From IMG/VR virus record IMGVR_UViG_3300016486_001578: DNA of 64,000 nucleotides; one strand, given 5' to 3'. Numbering within the stretch: position 1 is the first letter of the stretch; each line of letters begins with the position of its first letter. The notes beneath the pieces are model-generated. The model saw only the letters and a list, made by a program, of their open reading frames with translations. It was not told where the DNA came from and searched no databases. Positions 1,329 to 51,228 of this stretch are shown here, in pieces. The translations under genes and the position numbers were made by a program. The DNA is from a virus. Its lineage: Duplodnaviria > Caudoviricetes.

Positions 1329-1397
1329 GCAGGAGTAGCATAAGTTAATGTGCTAGACTTCCAGTCTAGAGATTCTGTTCAAATCAGACTCCTTGCT
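1329..1397 (+). tRNA. tRNA-Gly(TCC), somewhat degenerate
   Basis: Anticodon arm CTAGA-CTTCCAG-TCTAG and T-loop TTCAAAT. Acceptor stem GCAGGAG/TCCTTGC has one mismatch. Terminator hairpin at 1400-1427. Confidence 0.75.
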
Positions 1398-45596: not shown

Positions 45597-45753
45597 ATGA
45601 ACACAACAACTTTAAATACAAACTTATCACTGAGATCTCTTTTATTAAGAGAAGGGTCGGGATTTGTCTTATTTGAACGTTGTGATAGTAAATAATTACT
45701 ATAATAATATATCTAATACAAACCCGATACTCATAAAAGTATCGGGTTTTTTT
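45597..45753 (+). promoter_or_regulatory. Leader-peptide attenuator of the tRNA cluster (leader ORF 45597-45695)
   Basis: Leader MNTTTLNTNLSLRSLLLREGSGFVLFERCDSK. Antiterminator TCGGGATTTGT (45657-67) pairs with ACAAACCCGA (45718-27). Terminator AAACCCGATACT/AGTATCGGGTTT plus T tract ends 2 nt before the first tRNA. Confidence 0.75.
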
Positions 45754-45755
45754 AT

Positions 45756-45839
45756 GCACTTGTGGTGGAATTGGTAGACACCCTGGTCTTAGAAGCCAGT
45801 GCTCGGAAGAGCGTGAGAGTTCGATTCTCTCCAAGTGTA
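45756..45839 (+). tRNA. tRNA-Leu(TAG), long variable arm
   Basis: CTGGT-CTTAGAA-GCCAG; canonical D and T loops. Confidence 0.95.
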
Positions 45840-45846
45840 CTATAAT

Positions 45847-45933
45847 GCGGCTATGATGAAATTGGTAGCACATGCTAGACTTAAAATCTAGTGGATAGTA
45901 ATGTCCGTGCGGGTTCGACTCCCGCTAGCCGTA
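45847..45933 (+). tRNA. tRNA-Leu(TAA), long variable arm
   Basis: CTAGA-CTTAAAA-TCTAG; GTTCGACTC T-arm. Confidence 0.95.
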
Positions 45934-45940
45934 CAAAAAT

Positions 45941-46013
45941 GGCCCTATGGTGTAACTGAATAACACACACGCCTTCTAAGCGTATATTCCAAGTTTGAAT
46001 CTTGGTAGGGTCA
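45941..46013 (+). tRNA. tRNA-Arg(TCT)
   Basis: ACGC-CTTCTAA-GCGT; acceptor GGCCCTA/TAGGGTC. Confidence 0.85.
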
Positions 46014-46026
46014 CAAAAAATTAAAT

Positions 46027-46101
46027 GCTCTGGTAGCCCAATTGGAAGAGGCAATAGTTTTAGAAACTATACAGGTGTGGGTTCAAATCCCACTCGGAGT
46101 A
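46027..46101 (+). tRNA. tRNA with TAG (Leu) anticodon but a short variable loop
   Basis: ATAGT-TTTAGAA-ACTAT; variable region of only about 5-6 nt; discriminator A. Confidence 0.8.
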
Positions 46102-46105
46102 CAAT

Positions 46106-46186
46106 GTCTCAGTAGTCCCAGTTGTCTTCTAAACAACTACGGGTAATTGGATGCTGAAAATATAGGTTCGAATCCTATCTGAGACA
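46106..46186 (+). ncRNA. Non-canonical tRNA-like RNA (TCT anticodon hairpin, no D-arm at the normal position)
   Basis: Perfect acceptor GTCTCAG/CTGAGAC-A and T-arm ATAGG-TTCGAAT-CCTAT. AGTTGT-CTTCTAA-ACAACT lies only 7 nt after the acceptor stem. Confidence 0.65.
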
Positions 46187-46191
46187 CAAAT

Positions 46192-46242
46192 ATCTTGGTG
46201 GTGAAACCGTGTACGCTGCGGGTTCGACTCCCGTCCAAGATA
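46192..46242 (+). ncRNA. Mini tRNA-like RNA (acceptor stem plus T-arm, no anticodon arm)
   Basis: ATCTTGG/CCAAGAT-A; GCGGG-TTCGACT-CCCGT; 51 nt. Confidence 0.6.
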
Positions 46243-46257
46243 CAAAATGAAAGTAAA

Positions 46258-46431
46258 ATGATAATAGAGATAGATAATAAGACATATTTGGTAGAACCTT
46301 GTAAGCATTGTAAAAGAGATGATATCATTTATATAGAGAGTGATTTACCATGGAGTGATAGTAAATTTATATGTGATTTCTGTTGCTCTACCTATTCAAT
46401 ATTTGATACTAATATAGCAAATAAGATATAA
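46258..46431 (+). CDS. Small Zn-ribbon-like protein inside the tRNA cluster
   Basis: MIIEIDNK...CKHC...CDFCC. Confidence 0.5.
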   Translation: MIIEIDNKTYLVEPCKHCKRDDIIYIESDLPWSDSKFICDFCCSTYSIFDTNIANKI

Positions 46432-46450
46432 ATTTGAATAAGAAAAATAA

Positions 46451-46524
46451 GGCTTTGTATCATAATCGCATAATGAAATAGTTTCCTAAACTATCCTATG
46501 TGGGTTGGAATCCCTCCGAAGTCA
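46451..46524 (+). tRNA. tRNA-Arg(CCT), degenerate T-loop
   Basis: ATAGT-TTCCTAA-ACTAT; acceptor GGCTTTG/CGAAGTC; T-loop TTGGAAT. Confidence 0.7.
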
Positions 46525-46542
46525 CAAATAAAAAAATAAAAT

Positions 46543-46673: not shown

Positions 46674-48299
46674 ATGAATATAAAAGAAATAGAAAAAAAG
46701 TGGCAAAATAAATGGATAGAAGATAATTCATTTAAATTTGATGTAAACTCTAATAAAGAGAAGAAGATTATCATACCTATGTTTCCTTACCCCTCTGGTA
46801 ATATACATATGGGTCATATGAGAAATTATACAATATCGGATGTGATTGCTAGATATTGGCGAAATAAAGGATTTAACGTTTGTCATCCAATGGGTTGGGA
46901 CTCATATGGTTCACCAGCAGAAAGTGCTGCTATAAATAATAATGTACATCCAAAAGAATGGACTGATATCAATATTAAGAATATGAAAGAGCAAATGATT
47001 AGAATGGGTATGTCATTTGATTGGAGTAGAGAAATATCAACATGCGAGGTAGACTATTGGAAAAATGAACAGAAGTTCTTTATTGATATGTGGAAAAAAG
47101 GATATATTGATAAGAAGATTGGTTATGTAAACTGGGATCCAATAGATGAGAGTGTGGTTTCAAATGAACAAGTTATAGATGGTAAAGGGTGGAGAACAGG
47201 TGCTATAATAGAACAAAAAGAAATGATACAATATTACTTTAAAACAACTATGTTTAAAGATGATATGATGAATGTATCCTCTTGTGAAGAATGGCCTGAT
47301 AATATTACTAAGCAACAAGTAAACTTCATGAGTAAGGGTATAAGAAATGGTGATGATATAAACCCATTCTCAGATTGGTGTGTATCAAGACAGAAATATT
47401 GGGGAACACCAATACCTATGATCAATTGTGACAAATGTGGAACTATTCCAAATGAGAATATCCCAGTAGTAGCACCAATTGATGTTGACTTTAATGGAAA
47501 GGGTAATCCTATAAGAAATCATGCAACATGGGCGAATATAAAATGCCCAAATTGTGGTGGTGATGCTGAGAAAGAAACAGATACAATGGATACATTTGTT
47601 CAATCATCTTGGTACTTTATAAGATATATCTCAGATTTTTTTAATGGTGAGTTCGATCATGATGTTATTAAAAAAATGTTCCCAATTGATTACTATATTG
47701 GTGGCTCAGAACATGCTAATAGTCATATGATTTATTCTAGATTTTTTTGGAGAGTTTTTAAAGAAATGAATTATATACCTAAAAATACCTCAATAGAACC
47801 ATTTAAAAAAGTAATAACACAAGGTATGGTGAAAAATGGTGGGAAAAAGATGAGTAAATCAGCAGGTAATGGTATATCACCAATTGATGTAGTTGATAAA
47901 TATGGTTGTGATGTTGTAAGAATGTATATGATGTTCAGTGGACCAGTTGAACAAGATATTGATTGGAATGAAGATGGTATAAAAGGTGTGTCTAGATTTA
48001 TAACTAAAATTATAAATGCTATAACTAAAATAAAAGATAAAGATTTCATATATATTAAAAATGTAAAAAATGAACAAATATCTAAAACTAAAATAGAAGA
48101 ATTGAATAAAAGAATTGAAAATGTATATGAAGATAATATGAAATTTAATACAATAATAGCATTTTCAATGGAAACATATAATGCAATATCAAAAACAACT
48201 GATATAAATATATGGAAAGAGGGAATAGATACCATAATGCGTGGTATAGGTCCAATAATTCCACATATTTATAGTGAAAATTATGAAAATTATGAATAG
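46674..48299 (+). CDS. leuS: Minimal leucyl-tRNA synthetase (no CP1 editing domain, no C-terminal domain)
   Basis: MFPYPSGNIHMGH, GWDSYG.PAE, DWCVSRQKYWGTPIP, ETDTMDTFVQSSWY, YIGGSEHA, KMSKS; 541 aa. Confidence 0.92.
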   Translation: MNIKEIEKKWQNKWIEDNSFKFDVNSNKEKKIIIPMFPYPSGNIHMGHMRNYTISDVIARYWRNKGFNVCHPMGWDSYGSPAESAAINNNVHPKEWTDINIKNMKEQMIRMGMSFDWSREISTCEVDYWKNEQKFFIDMWKKGYIDKKIGYVNWDPIDESVVSNEQVIDGKGWRTGAIIEQKEMIQYYFKTTMFKDDMMNVSSCEEWPDNITKQQVNFMSKGIRNGDDINPFSDWCVSRQKYWGTPIPMINCDKCGTIPNENIPVVAPIDVDFNGKGNPIRNHATWANIKCPNCGGDAEKETDTMDTFVQSSWYFIRYISDFFNGEFDHDVIKKMFPIDYYIGGSEHANSHMIYSRFFWRVFKEMNYIPKNTSIEPFKKVITQGMVKNGGKKMSKSAGNGISPIDVVDKYGCDVVRMYMMFSGPVEQDIDWNEDGIKGVSRFITKIINAITKIKDKDFIYIKNVKNEQISKTKIEELNKRIENVYEDNMKFNTIIAFSMETYNAISKTTDINIWKEGIDTIMRGIGPIIPHIYSENYENYE

Positions 48300-48309
48300 A
48301 AAACTAAAA

Positions 48310-49359
48310 ATGAATAAAGTAGATAAAAAATATTTAAAACTTCTTAAAAAAATTTTAAAAAAAGGAATAGTTAAAAAAGATAGAACCAGAACTGGGACAA
48401 TATCCTTATTTGGTCATTCGATGCGTTTTAACATGAGTGATGGCTTTCCACTATTAACGTCTAAAAAAATGTTTACAAAAGCAATAATAATTGAATTAAT
48501 ATGGTTTATAAATGGAGATACTAATATTAAATATTTAGTTGACAATGGATGTAATATCTGGAATGGAGACGCTTATAAAAATTATTGTAATAAGTATTGG
48601 ACATTAGATGAATTATGTAAAATTGAATATGGTAGCTCATATTATGATCATGAGTTAAATGAATATAATTTTGAAGTTTGGACAATTGAAAAATTTATTG
48701 AGAAAATAAAAACAGATGATGTCTTCTGTAAAAAATGGGGTGAGTTGGGACCAGTATATGGGAGACAATGGCGTGATTTTAATGGCGTTGATCAATTTAA
48801 AGATTTGTTAGAAACTCTTAAAAAAAATCCGGACTCTAGAAGAATGATGGTTAGTGCATGGGATCCATCAAAACTTAATGAAATGGTTCTACCACCTTGC
48901 CACTTTAACTTCCAATGTTATACAACAGAAATGACTTACAATGAAAGAATTAAAAGGTGGTTAAAATCTATCAATAAAGATGAATCATATTCAAAAGAAA
49001 TGACAATGGAAAAATTAGATTTACAAGGATTTCCAAAAAGAAAATTGGATATAAAATGGAGTCAACGCAGTTGCGATTTTTTCCTAGGAATTCCGTTCAA
49101 TATAGCATCCTATGGTCTCCTACTACATTTATTAGCAAAAGAAGTTAATATGATTCCTAATGATTTAATATTTTCCGGTGGAGATTGTCACATCTACCTA
49201 AATCATATAGATGTTGTTAAAGAACAATTAAAAAGTGAAACATTTAAATTATGTAATTTGGAGTTATTGAATAACTCAATATTTAATTTAAAATATGAGG
49301 ATTTTAAGATTCTAAATTATAAATCTTCCCCTGTATTAAAAGGAAAATTATCAAATTAA
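48310..49359 (+). CDS. thyA: Thymidylate synthase
   Basis: DRT.TGT, LGPVYG, DSRRM, LPPCH, QRSCDFFLGIPFNIASY, GDCHIYLNH. Confidence 0.95.
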   Translation: MNKVDKKYLKLLKKILKKGIVKKDRTRTGTISLFGHSMRFNMSDGFPLLTSKKMFTKAIIIELIWFINGDTNIKYLVDNGCNIWNGDAYKNYCNKYWTLDELCKIEYGSSYYDHELNEYNFEVWTIEKFIEKIKTDDVFCKKWGELGPVYGRQWRDFNGVDQFKDLLETLKKNPDSRRMMVSAWDPSKLNEMVLPPCHFNFQCYTTEMTYNERIKRWLKSINKDESYSKEMTMEKLDLQGFPKRKLDIKWSQRSCDFFLGIPFNIASYGLLLHLLAKEVNMIPNDLIFSGGDCHIYLNHIDVVKEQLKSETFKLCNLELLNNSIFNLKYEDFKILNYKSSPVLKGKLSN

Positions 49360-50184: not shown

Positions 50185-50415
50185 TTATTAGCAAGGGAAG
50201 CTAACATGATACCAGATGAATTAATAGGAAATTTAGGAGATTGTCATATATATTTAAATCAAATAGATCCTATTCAAGAACAACTTAATAATAAATCATA
50301 TAAATTACCAGAATTAAAATTATCAAATAATTCAATCTTTGATATAAAAATAGAAGAAATTTCTATTATAGGTTATAAATCATCTAAAAGAGTTAATTAT
50401 AAATTATCAAATTAA
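50185..50415 (+). pseudogene. thyA: Orphan thyA C-terminal fragment
   Basis: LLAREANMIPDELIGNLGDCHIYLNQ...YKS...KLSN parallels the end of 48310-49359. Confidence 0.85.
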
Positions 50416-51228
50416 AATATAATTATCAAATTTTTTATTTTTTGATAAACATCGCCACCTAATTGTAACAACTGGTATTTCTTTATCTTTTGAAGCATCA
50501 CCATAGGAATCATATATTTTTCCATCTATTGAGAGTTTAACTCTATTTGACGGCTTTATACCCATTCTTTTTTTACTAATTTTATTTTTAGTTTCATCAC
50601 TATGTTTTTTACCATAGAATCCATTTTTTTCACCTATTCTTTGTGAAGCTAAAAAAGATAGCTTCTCACTTATTCTTTTTGATATTTCTTCGCCATATAA
50701 TTCAGTGTTTGTTTTTCCAAACCTATTTCTTAGTCCATTTTTCAAATTAGATTTTTGATAATTTGAAAAATCTAATTTCATTTTATCAGACCATCTATTG
50801 CCATAATTTGGATTTAATTTACCTATTTTGCCCCATTTTTCTTTTTTTCCTTTTGTTGTCATATTTGATATGTTATAATTAACAGACTCTTTAATTCTAT
50901 TTATTATATCTATTCTTTTTGGATTATTTGTTAGGTTATCTCCACCAGAAGCACCAGTGCTTATATTTAATACATTTTCATTAAATGGTAAAATACTTTT
51001 CAAATATTTTTGCTCTGTTATTAATAATTCTTTTACTTTACATAATTCTATAACCTCAAATTTAAAATTATCTAATCCATATTTATTAAAAACTCTTTGT
51101 AATTTTATATTTATGTGTTTATTTTTATTTAAATCATCTATATGTCTTTTCCACCTTTTTTCTATATTTTTTGATGATCCTATGTAGAATTTTTCACCAC
51201 AACTAATTTTATATATTCCTGAACTCAT
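50407..51228 (-). CDS. GIY-YIG/NUMOD3 homing endonuclease
   Basis: GIYKIS..FYIGSS..RWKRH; FYGKKHSDETK. Confidence 0.9.
   Translation of the reverse strand: MSSGIYKISCGEKFYIGSSKNIEKRWKRHIDDLNKNKHINIKLQRVFNKYGLDNFKFEVIELCKVKELLITEQKYLKSILPFNENVLNISTGASGGDNLTNNPKRIDIINRIKESVNYNISNMTTKGKKEKWGKIGKLNPNYGNRWSDKMKLDFSNYQKSNLKNGLRNRFGKTNTELYGEEISKRISEKLSFLASQRIGEKNGFYGKKHSDETKNKISKKRMGIKPSNRVKLSIDGKIYDSYGDASKDKEIPVVTIRWRCLSKNKKFDNYILI

Follow-up and report, generated by a model that had tools for sequence, protein, structure and literature searches.

The window, i.e. the whole stretch of 64,000 nucleotides of phage DNA that was analysed, contains seven tRNA genes according to ARAGORN, and six of them form one array (45756-46525) in the order Leu(UAG, 84 nt), Leu(UAA, 87 nt), Arg(UCU), the tRNA that is the target of this analysis, an odd call with a UCU hairpin, and Arg(CCU). 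The target lies 570 nt upstream of a gene for a leucyl-tRNA synthetase (LeuRS). The features of the region are the following (R1 is a covariance model built from the family alignment described below):

45720-45749, plus strand: terminator-like hairpin, directly 5' of the first tRNA of the array
45756-45839, plus strand: type II (long variable arm) tRNALeu(UAG); ARAGORN; Rfam 54.2 bits, with a 12-nt insertion in the variable region
45847-45933, plus strand: type II tRNALeu(UAA); ARAGORN; Rfam 55.7 bits
45941-46013, plus strand: tRNAArg(UCU); ARAGORN; Rfam 54.2 bits
46027-46101, plus strand: the target, a type I (short variable loop) tRNALeu with anticodon UAG; ARAGORN; Rfam tRNA 52.9 bits; R1 80.1 bits
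46106-46186, plus strand: tRNA-like RNA; weak Rfam tRNA-Sec-like match, 24.8 bits; R1 32.4 bits
46451-46524, plus strand: tRNAArg(CCU); ARAGORN; Rfam 46.5 bits
46616-46643, plus strand: terminator-like hairpin between the tRNA array and leuS
46674-48299, plus strand: minimal leucyl-tRNA synthetase, 541 aa; NCBIfam leuS_bact 588.6 bits; PDB alignments

The tRNA array and the structure of the short-arm gene

No terminator-like site was found from the first hairpin (45720-45749) to 46616, so the array looks like a single transcription unit. The target gene is well formed. ARAGORN calls it at 46027-46102 with the anticodon TAG, and the Rfam tRNA model RF00005 covers the 75 nt from 46027 to 46101 end to end with 52.9 bits (E 6e-10, gathering score 29), a score within the range of the array neighbours. 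Of the 7 bp in the acceptor stem, three are G.U (G1.U72, U5.G68 and G7.U66), position 3:70 is U-A and not G.U, the discriminator is A73 (the A at 46101) and the CCA end is not encoded. The 7-nt anticodon loop UUUAGAA includes U33 and the T arm is canonical; the D arm, with the length and the AAUUGG-N-AG loop of the long-arm Leu tRNAs of the array, has three Watson-Crick pairs, to which Rfam adds a C/A mismatch and the minimum-free-energy fold a bulged A. The variable loop, ACAGGU, is 6 nt long, the norm of the type I family being 5, and there is no long variable stem-loop of the kind that defines type II (10 nt or more). The cloverleaf is the minimum-free-energy fold of the sequence, with a folding z-score of -1.83.

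A preliminary description had presented this gene as a class I-shaped tRNA with a UAG anticodon, A73 and a short variable loop, and ARAGORN, Rfam and the sequence bear this out. It was also right in stating that the two upstream copies, tRNALeu(UAG) at 45756-45839 and tRNALeu(UAA) at 45847-45933, are long-armed, that the UAG anticodon is thereby duplicated in the cluster, and that the anticodon stem differs between the two UAG copies: AUAGU/ACUAU in the target vs CUGGU/GCCAG, with one G.U pair, in the long-arm copy. In more general terms, the canonical type II tRNALeu(UAG), the copy at 45756-45839 included, resembles the target in anticodon, A73, G1.U72 and the length and layout of the D arm, but it has a variable stem-loop of 12-17 nt, G9 where the target has A9, and another D-stem sequence. 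The anticodon stem AUAGU/ACUAU is found once more in tRNAArg(CCU) at 46451-46524, which differs from the target in the D arm and the acceptor stem. A reverse-strand amber suppressor (anticodon CUA) was rejected, since Rfam gives a match on the plus strand alone, which is also the one strand with canonical T and D loops.

There are a few other elements in the surroundings that need to be mentioned. The tRNA-like RNA at 46106-46186 (plus strand) begins 4 nt past A73 of the target; its acceptor and T arms are perfect, it carries a 6-bp UCU hairpin, and a sequence that resembles a D loop sits after this hairpin. An element of similar build is present in the 635-kb phage LR745206 (L002, 3004-3083), and the design is therefore conserved. 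It is followed at 46190-46246 (plus strand) by an element of about 56 nt, called by none of the tools, that has a 7-bp acceptor stem and A73 but no anticodon arm, and whose T arm is nearly identical to that of tRNALeu(UAA) at 45847-45933. The seventh ARAGORN call, a tRNA-Gly(UCC) at 1329-1396 (plus strand), is remote from the main array, unusually short (68 nt) and an ARAGORN call alone. Downstream, leuS is overlapped at its end by a thymidylate synthase gene (48274-49359, plus strand), and not far from leuS there is a gene for a GIY-YIG/NUMOD3 homing endonuclease (50407-51228, minus strand).

Short-arm leucine tRNAs in phages and bacteria

A BLAST search with the 75-nt target gave matches at 75-84% identity in 96 phage records, from phages of Streptomyces, Mycobacterium, Vibrio and Pseudomonas and from Ounavirinae of Shigella, Escherichia, Salmonella and Citrobacter. 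Where annotated, the matches are labelled tRNA-Leu, and the records that were opened show genes of 75-77 nt reading CUA. A pattern composed of the D arm and the UAG loop is found in at least 120 IMG/VR contigs and in at least 120 bacterial genomes, mostly Actinomycetota among the matches listed. The core of 74 nt is present in 226 of the 240 family tRNAs recovered and A73 in 230 of the 235 in the IMG/VR and genome sets; an extra nucleotide in the variable loop, as in the target, is rare. Members have a class I-shaped cloverleaf, a variable loop of 5-6 nt and a D arm of the leucine type, with three pairs in its stem. Short-arm outnumber long-arm Leu tRNAs by 198 to 26 in 118 IMG/VR loci, which were chosen for having one short-arm gene, and the type I tRNALeu of phage arrays spans all six leucine anticodon types.

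The family alignment contains 83 representatives that are at most 80% identical. Its stem cells are paired in 99.7% of cases, and compensatory changes are seen at 17 of the 20 pairs, i.e. at all 17 variable ones; the observed pairing and covariation values are far above the shuffled and slid controls and were reached by none of 500 shuffles. Note that U48 is invariant even though it lies outside the search pattern, and A15, which is opposite to it, is invariant as well. The target has every invariant column of this alignment (A1) and also keeps the universal tRNA positions; the family D arm (U8 A9 GCCC AA..GG.. GAGGC), A14, A15, G18G19 and U48 are all present. On the covariance model R1, the target scores 80.1 bits, in the upper range of the family, compared to at most 57 bits for those tRNAs of the phage loci that fall outside the family.

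In cellular genomes the R1 cut-off of 62 bits is unsafe, since the Bacteroidota matches of 63-71 bits that were opened turned out to be tRNA-Arg(UCG) in four cases out of four. At 73 bits or more, type I tRNALeu is found in 27 of 151 sampled Actinomycetota genomes (about one in six), a proportion that rests partly on two unpublished positives (G435 and G288); the count becomes 24 of 147 when these two are left out together with G335, which is unpublished and not a positive, and the centre genome. In the Bacteroidota, the suspected host phylum of the window phage, only one of 150 sampled genomes has such a tRNA, inside a phage-like array of 10 tRNAs. The tRNA-Arg(UCG/ACG) of Bacteroidota (L506-L509), with 63-71 bits on R1, have a similar D arm (GUAGCUCAAYUGGAUAGAGCA). 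Type I tRNALeu is common in phages and in some bacteria.

The general features of the family can be compared with those of Streptomyces coelicolor, which contains one type I tRNALeu(CAA), with the variable loop ACAGC, and four type II isoacceptors (PMC6614811). Both tRNALeu types are leucylated by its single LeuRS (Fan et al. 2019, Nucleic Acids Res, PMC6614811), which does not charge human mitochondrial tRNALeu. This tRNALeu(CAA) and the target both have a variable loop starting with ACAG, A14, G18G19 and A73, but the former is chromosomal and its loop has 5 nt, whereas the target is phage-borne, reads CUA through UAG and has a 6-nt loop and G1.U72. Position 48 is reported as C in the S. coelicolor tRNA, as opposed to the invariant U48 of the family alignment. 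Other counterparts are the tRNA-Leu(UAG) genes of isolate phages: those of Shigella phage Sf17 (Ounavirinae), Streptomyces phage Daubenski and Mycobacterium phage Rey are homologous to the target, with 76-83% identity, a core of 74-75 nt and A73 and G1.U72 in common, and the D arm of Sf17 is identical to that of the target. Several of these genes encode the CCA end, while the target does not. They are annotated as plain tRNA-Leu, and no comment on the missing arm was found in the papers searched. Animal mitochondrial type I tRNALeu also lacks the long arm and is served by a LeuRS with reduced accessory functions, but its sequence is unrelated to that of the target and its D/T-loop interactions are relaxed.

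It was suggested earlier that the target might be charged with another amino acid and thus mistranslate CUA. The D-arm motif occurs in 49 further tRNAs among the 1947 distinct tRNAs of the fetched loci, and all 49 have leucine anticodons (CAA 22, UAA 18, GAG 7, CAG 1 and AAG 1, respectively); it was found in none of the approximately 1500 non-Leu tRNAs of these loci. One and the same body thus extends across the UUR and CUN boxes, which points to leucine identity, leucine being the sole thing that the two boxes share. Against a profile of type I Leu tRNAs whose anticodons are other than UAG, the target with its own anticodon masked reaches 45.7 bits, compared to 24.2 bits for the next isotype (Lys) and 17.1 bits for the long-arm Leu profile; a recent anticodon mutation of a Lys, Arg, Ile or Val tRNA is ruled out by the profile scores. 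The nearest relative of the target in LR745206 is a type I tRNA with the same 5' strand of the acceptor stem and a UAA anticodon (the two-piece match that includes it has a mean identity of 84.6%), as would be expected if the charging enzyme ignores the anticodon. Type I members with CAA in Streptomyces, Corynebacterium, Mycobacterium, Nocardia and others score 72-84 bits on R1, and those of Streptomyces, at 76-81 bits, have the same D-arm motif.

A loose pattern matches no UAG tRNA other than the short type I form in five Actinomycetota genomes, and this form therefore appears to be the only reader of CUA there. These genomes (G101 and G105-G108) belong to Amycolatopsis, Kutzneria, Micromonospora and Streptomonospora. 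Which leucine isoacceptor is short-armed differs among Actinomycetota; one Nocardia genome, for example, has a long-arm UAG and a short-arm CAA tRNA. As the target's body is seen only with leucine anticodons of the CUN and UUR boxes and is free of the marks of tRNAs that reassign CUN, mischarging appears unlikely, and this part of the preliminary description is not upheld.

The phage leucyl-tRNA synthetase and its link to leucine tRNAs

The phage LeuRS is of the bacterial type and aligns to LeuRS structures of 877 aa in three blocks. The alignments skip the CP1 editing domain, at reference residues of about 229-429, as well as a stretch of about 40 residues ahead of KMSKS, which is the leucine-specific domain (LSD). 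The end of the protein falls near residue 790 of the 877-residue reference, i.e. before the C-terminal domain (CTD). A truncated, CTD-less LeuRS beside the tRNA had been described before; the PDB alignments confirm it and add the absence of CP1 and LSD. There are about 45 metagenome homologues of 510-547 aa with 57-78% identity, and the best phage record for a homologue is the 735-kb phage LR756501. In IMG/VR a single protein query found nothing, and an alignment query was required. Three relatives with 62-63% identity (P0036, P0039 and P0040; 645-647 aa) carry PF13603, the LeuRS editing-domain family, and the loss of CP1 may for this reason be recent within the clade of the window's phage. 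Another clade, which is larger, consists of still shorter LeuRS-like proteins of about 420-435 aa that have 31-36% identity to the window LeuRS, score 390-406 bits with leuS_bact and occur on phage contigs of up to 608 kb; it includes L007 1507-2775 (LR745206), L264 2932-4236 and about 50 IMG/VR loci (L262-L314).

The tRNA had been proposed as the orthogonal partner of this enzyme. The location agrees with the proposal in as much as the target does belong to a Leu/Arg array directly upstream of a CTD-less LeuRS; an exclusive pairing is not supported, since the same tRNA family is found without LeuRS and the arrays mix the two arm types. From the side of the tRNA, co-occurrence, the check put forward in the preliminary description, fails, with no LeuRS detected in the 49 IMG/VR carriers or the 96 isolate records. 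A LeuRS homologue was found in 0 of 49 IMG/VR contigs with a UAG family member, and in 0 of 25 carrier contigs that are at least 90% complete (up to 448 kb), by a query that recovered LeuRS in five of five positive controls; the LeuRS-bearing phage records of the tblastn list and the 96 isolate carriers have no record in common.

The picture from the side of LeuRS is mixed. In LR756501, three long-arm and two short-arm Leu tRNAs lie directly upstream of the orthologous leuS. Since the R1 cut-off is unsafe, the tRNAs of LeuRS-flanking arrays were classed by ARAGORN anticodon and length. Leu tRNAs within 3 kb of a mini-LeuRS were seen at 13 distinct loci among 56 IMG/VR loci. Nine of the 13 include short-arm Leu tRNAs, usually mixed with long-arm ones and often with duplicated anticodons:

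Mini-LeuRS loci with short-arm Leu tRNAs: L259, L261, L273, L274, L277/L278, L285, L287, L291, L293
Mini-LeuRS loci with long-arm Leu tRNAs only (4 of 13): L268, L269, L283, L289

No Leu tRNA was found in the 5-kb flanks of the mini-LeuRS genes of P0015, P0025, P0013 and P0035. High-scoring R1 matches occur on 12 of 50 LeuRS-bearing contigs, on none of six further ones (L309-L314) and on 3 of 20 contigs with other class I synthetases, counts that are rough because tRNA-Arg passes the 62-bit cut-off; there is no clear enrichment of type I tRNALeu on LeuRS-bearing contigs. As the arrays mix short and long arms, the linkage of LeuRS is to tRNALeu in general.

What is known about recognition by LeuRS has to be considered here. 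[quoted passage not shown] The LeuRS of E. coli and of one Streptomyces do not charge the type I tRNA of S. coelicolor, and swapping in the S. coelicolor LSD confers charging of type I tRNALeu, i.e. the LSD decides acceptance (PMC6614811). Charging in S. coelicolor needs a full-length LeuRS with a particular LSD, whereas the phage LeuRS has none. Charging of the target by an arbitrary host LeuRS can therefore not be assumed; on the other hand, there are coliphages that have type I tRNALeu but no LeuRS of their own, which argues that host enzymes are able to handle such tRNAs.

It is conceivable that host LeuRS charges type I tRNALeu poorly and that the LSD- and CTD-less phage enzyme charges it, so that the tRNA and the mini-LeuRS together would form a host-independent leucylation module. 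The type I-containing arrays within about 3 kb of a mini-LeuRS (in the window, LR756501 and the nine IMG/VR loci), the role of the LSD together with the failure of the E. coli enzyme, the contact of the CTD with the long arm, and the rarity of type I tRNALeu in the sampled Bacteroidota are all in favour of this idea. However, the family is common without LeuRS, coliphages included, long-arm Leu tRNAs equal or outnumber the short-arm ones in the LeuRS-linked arrays and are alone in some of them, no Leu tRNA lies in the 5-kb surroundings of four other mini-LeuRS genes, and LeuRS-bearing contigs are not strongly enriched (12 of 50, and 0 of 6, vs 3 of 20 contigs with other class I synthetases, with the imperfect cut-off). 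A private pairing is not required by these data nor specifically supported by them, preferential charging by the phage LeuRS is possible but unsupported, and we consider a partnership of this kind rather unlikely. An extended form of the idea, to which we give similarly little weight, is that huge phages whose hosts lack type I tRNALeu might carry a self-contained leucylation module, composed of a LeuRS stripped of the three accessory domains, among them the LSD as the part that decides between tRNA types, and a parallel series of tRNALeu with short arms, which would be poor substrates of the host enzyme. If this were true, the module would keep leucine decoding going when the type II tRNALeu or the LeuRS of the host is attacked or exhausted.

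Role of the short-arm tRNA

The reading that we prefer, with a probability of about 0.72, is that the target is a functional type I tRNALeu, a leucine-accepting decoder of CUA that does not depend on the mini-LeuRS. It draws on the structure of the gene, the family and its covariation, the body confined to leucine anticodons, the LeuRS-less carriers and the codon usage of the phage; the independence from the mini-LeuRS follows from the wide distribution of the family in LeuRS-less phages and Actinomycetota chromosomes. Expression, leucylation and the identity of the charging enzyme are what we infer from these: the target would be co-transcribed with the neighbouring Leu and Arg tRNAs, matured by RNase P (of the host or the phage) and a CCA-adding enzyme, and charged with leucine, after which it would read CUA and possibly other CUN codons. 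The minimal LeuRS of the phage may also charge it.

The role of such a tRNA would be to supply CUA decoding for the AT-rich codon usage of the phage. In the 41 ORFs of the window, UUA makes up 56.9% of the leucine codons and CUA, the second most used, 17.3%, followed by UUG (12.1%) and CUU (11.4%); among the arginine codons, AGA accounts for 72% and AGG for 18.5%. The anticodons of the array (UAA, UAG twice, UCU and CCU) fit these preferred A/U-rich Leu and Arg codons, and supply is therefore a sufficient reason for two UAG tRNAs. That both architectures are kept is not explained by a simple need for decoding, because the anticodon of the target is already present in the array, and it may also reflect pressure from tRNA-targeting defence.

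Variation of the arm is also seen in the opposite direction. A long variable region was found in 62 distinct tRNAs (82-96 nt) that have Asn, Thr, Lys, Met, Ile, Cys, Val, Gln, Trp or His anticodons (L002, L252, L258, L289, L291, L302, L343, L349 and many IMG/VR loci). They are often located beside a normal short copy with the same anticodon, they keep the acceptor ends typical of their isotypes, e.g. U1-A72 and G73 in Asn, and they are the mirror image of the short-arm Leu tRNAs.

One could speculate that the short arm makes the target invisible to a nuclease or modifier, host- or phage-encoded, that targets long-arm tRNALeu, in which case a short-arm tRNALeu would sustain CUA decoding when the type II pool is attacked. 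One anticodon is served by both architectures in this array and in several related ones, there are documented cases of phage tRNAs that neutralise defences based on tRNA cleavage (PARIS, PMC11464382), and the long-arm versions of normally short-arm tRNAs in phage arrays suggest a general pressure on tRNA shape. However, no nuclease that selects bacterial tRNALeu by its variable arm was found in the literature searched, and the chromosomal type I tRNALeu of Actinomycetota shows the same architecture outside any context of phage defence, so we regard escape from defence as an improbable explanation. Bacterial Schlafen was considered as a long-arm-specific nuclease and rejected, as the paper gives Lys, Ala and Met targets.

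There is very little to recommend the view that the target is a decaying duplicate devoid of function. The three G.U pairs of the acceptor stem and the extra nucleotide in the variable loop could make it a weaker substrate, its anticodon is redundant and its folding z-score is modest, but all its stems are intact, the invariant positions of the family and of tRNAs in general are kept, its R1 score is high for the family, and its spacing in the array is 4-7 nt, as for the neighbouring tRNAs. Least probable of all is a recoding tRNA that would carry another amino acid and insert it at CUA: recoding of CUN by class I-shaped UAG tRNAs is known from the mitochondria of yeast and Ashbya (PMC7609411), but these tRNAs have an 8-nt anticodon loop (yeast mitochondrial tRNAThr) or G3:U70 (Ashbya tRNAAla), as opposed to the 7-nt loop and U-A at 3:70 of the target, whose body occurs only with the leucine anticodons of both codon boxes, whose type I Leu score is approached by no other isotype profile, and whose relatives account for every UAG tRNA match in the five Actinomycetota genomes mentioned above.

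A long variable arm is a textbook feature of bacterial tRNALeu. In the literature that we searched, the term type I tRNALeu is used for a bacterium only in the S. coelicolor paper, where it is treated as a rare case (PMC6614811), and no description of short-arm tRNALeu in phages was found. The target belongs to a kind already described in Streptomyces, and the commonness of type I tRNALeu removes most of the mystery from the single gene. The broader pattern, i.e. the spread of short-arm Leu tRNAs among phages and the pairing of both architectures beside genes for an LSD-less LeuRS, is of more weight than the gene itself. It provides a natural contrast between coliphages that have type I tRNALeu and no LeuRS, and huge phages in which an LSD-less LeuRS adjoins such tRNAs. 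Natural LeuRS/tRNA pairs of this kind could show how LeuRS reads the shape of a tRNA, and in their compact form they could serve genetic-code engineering.
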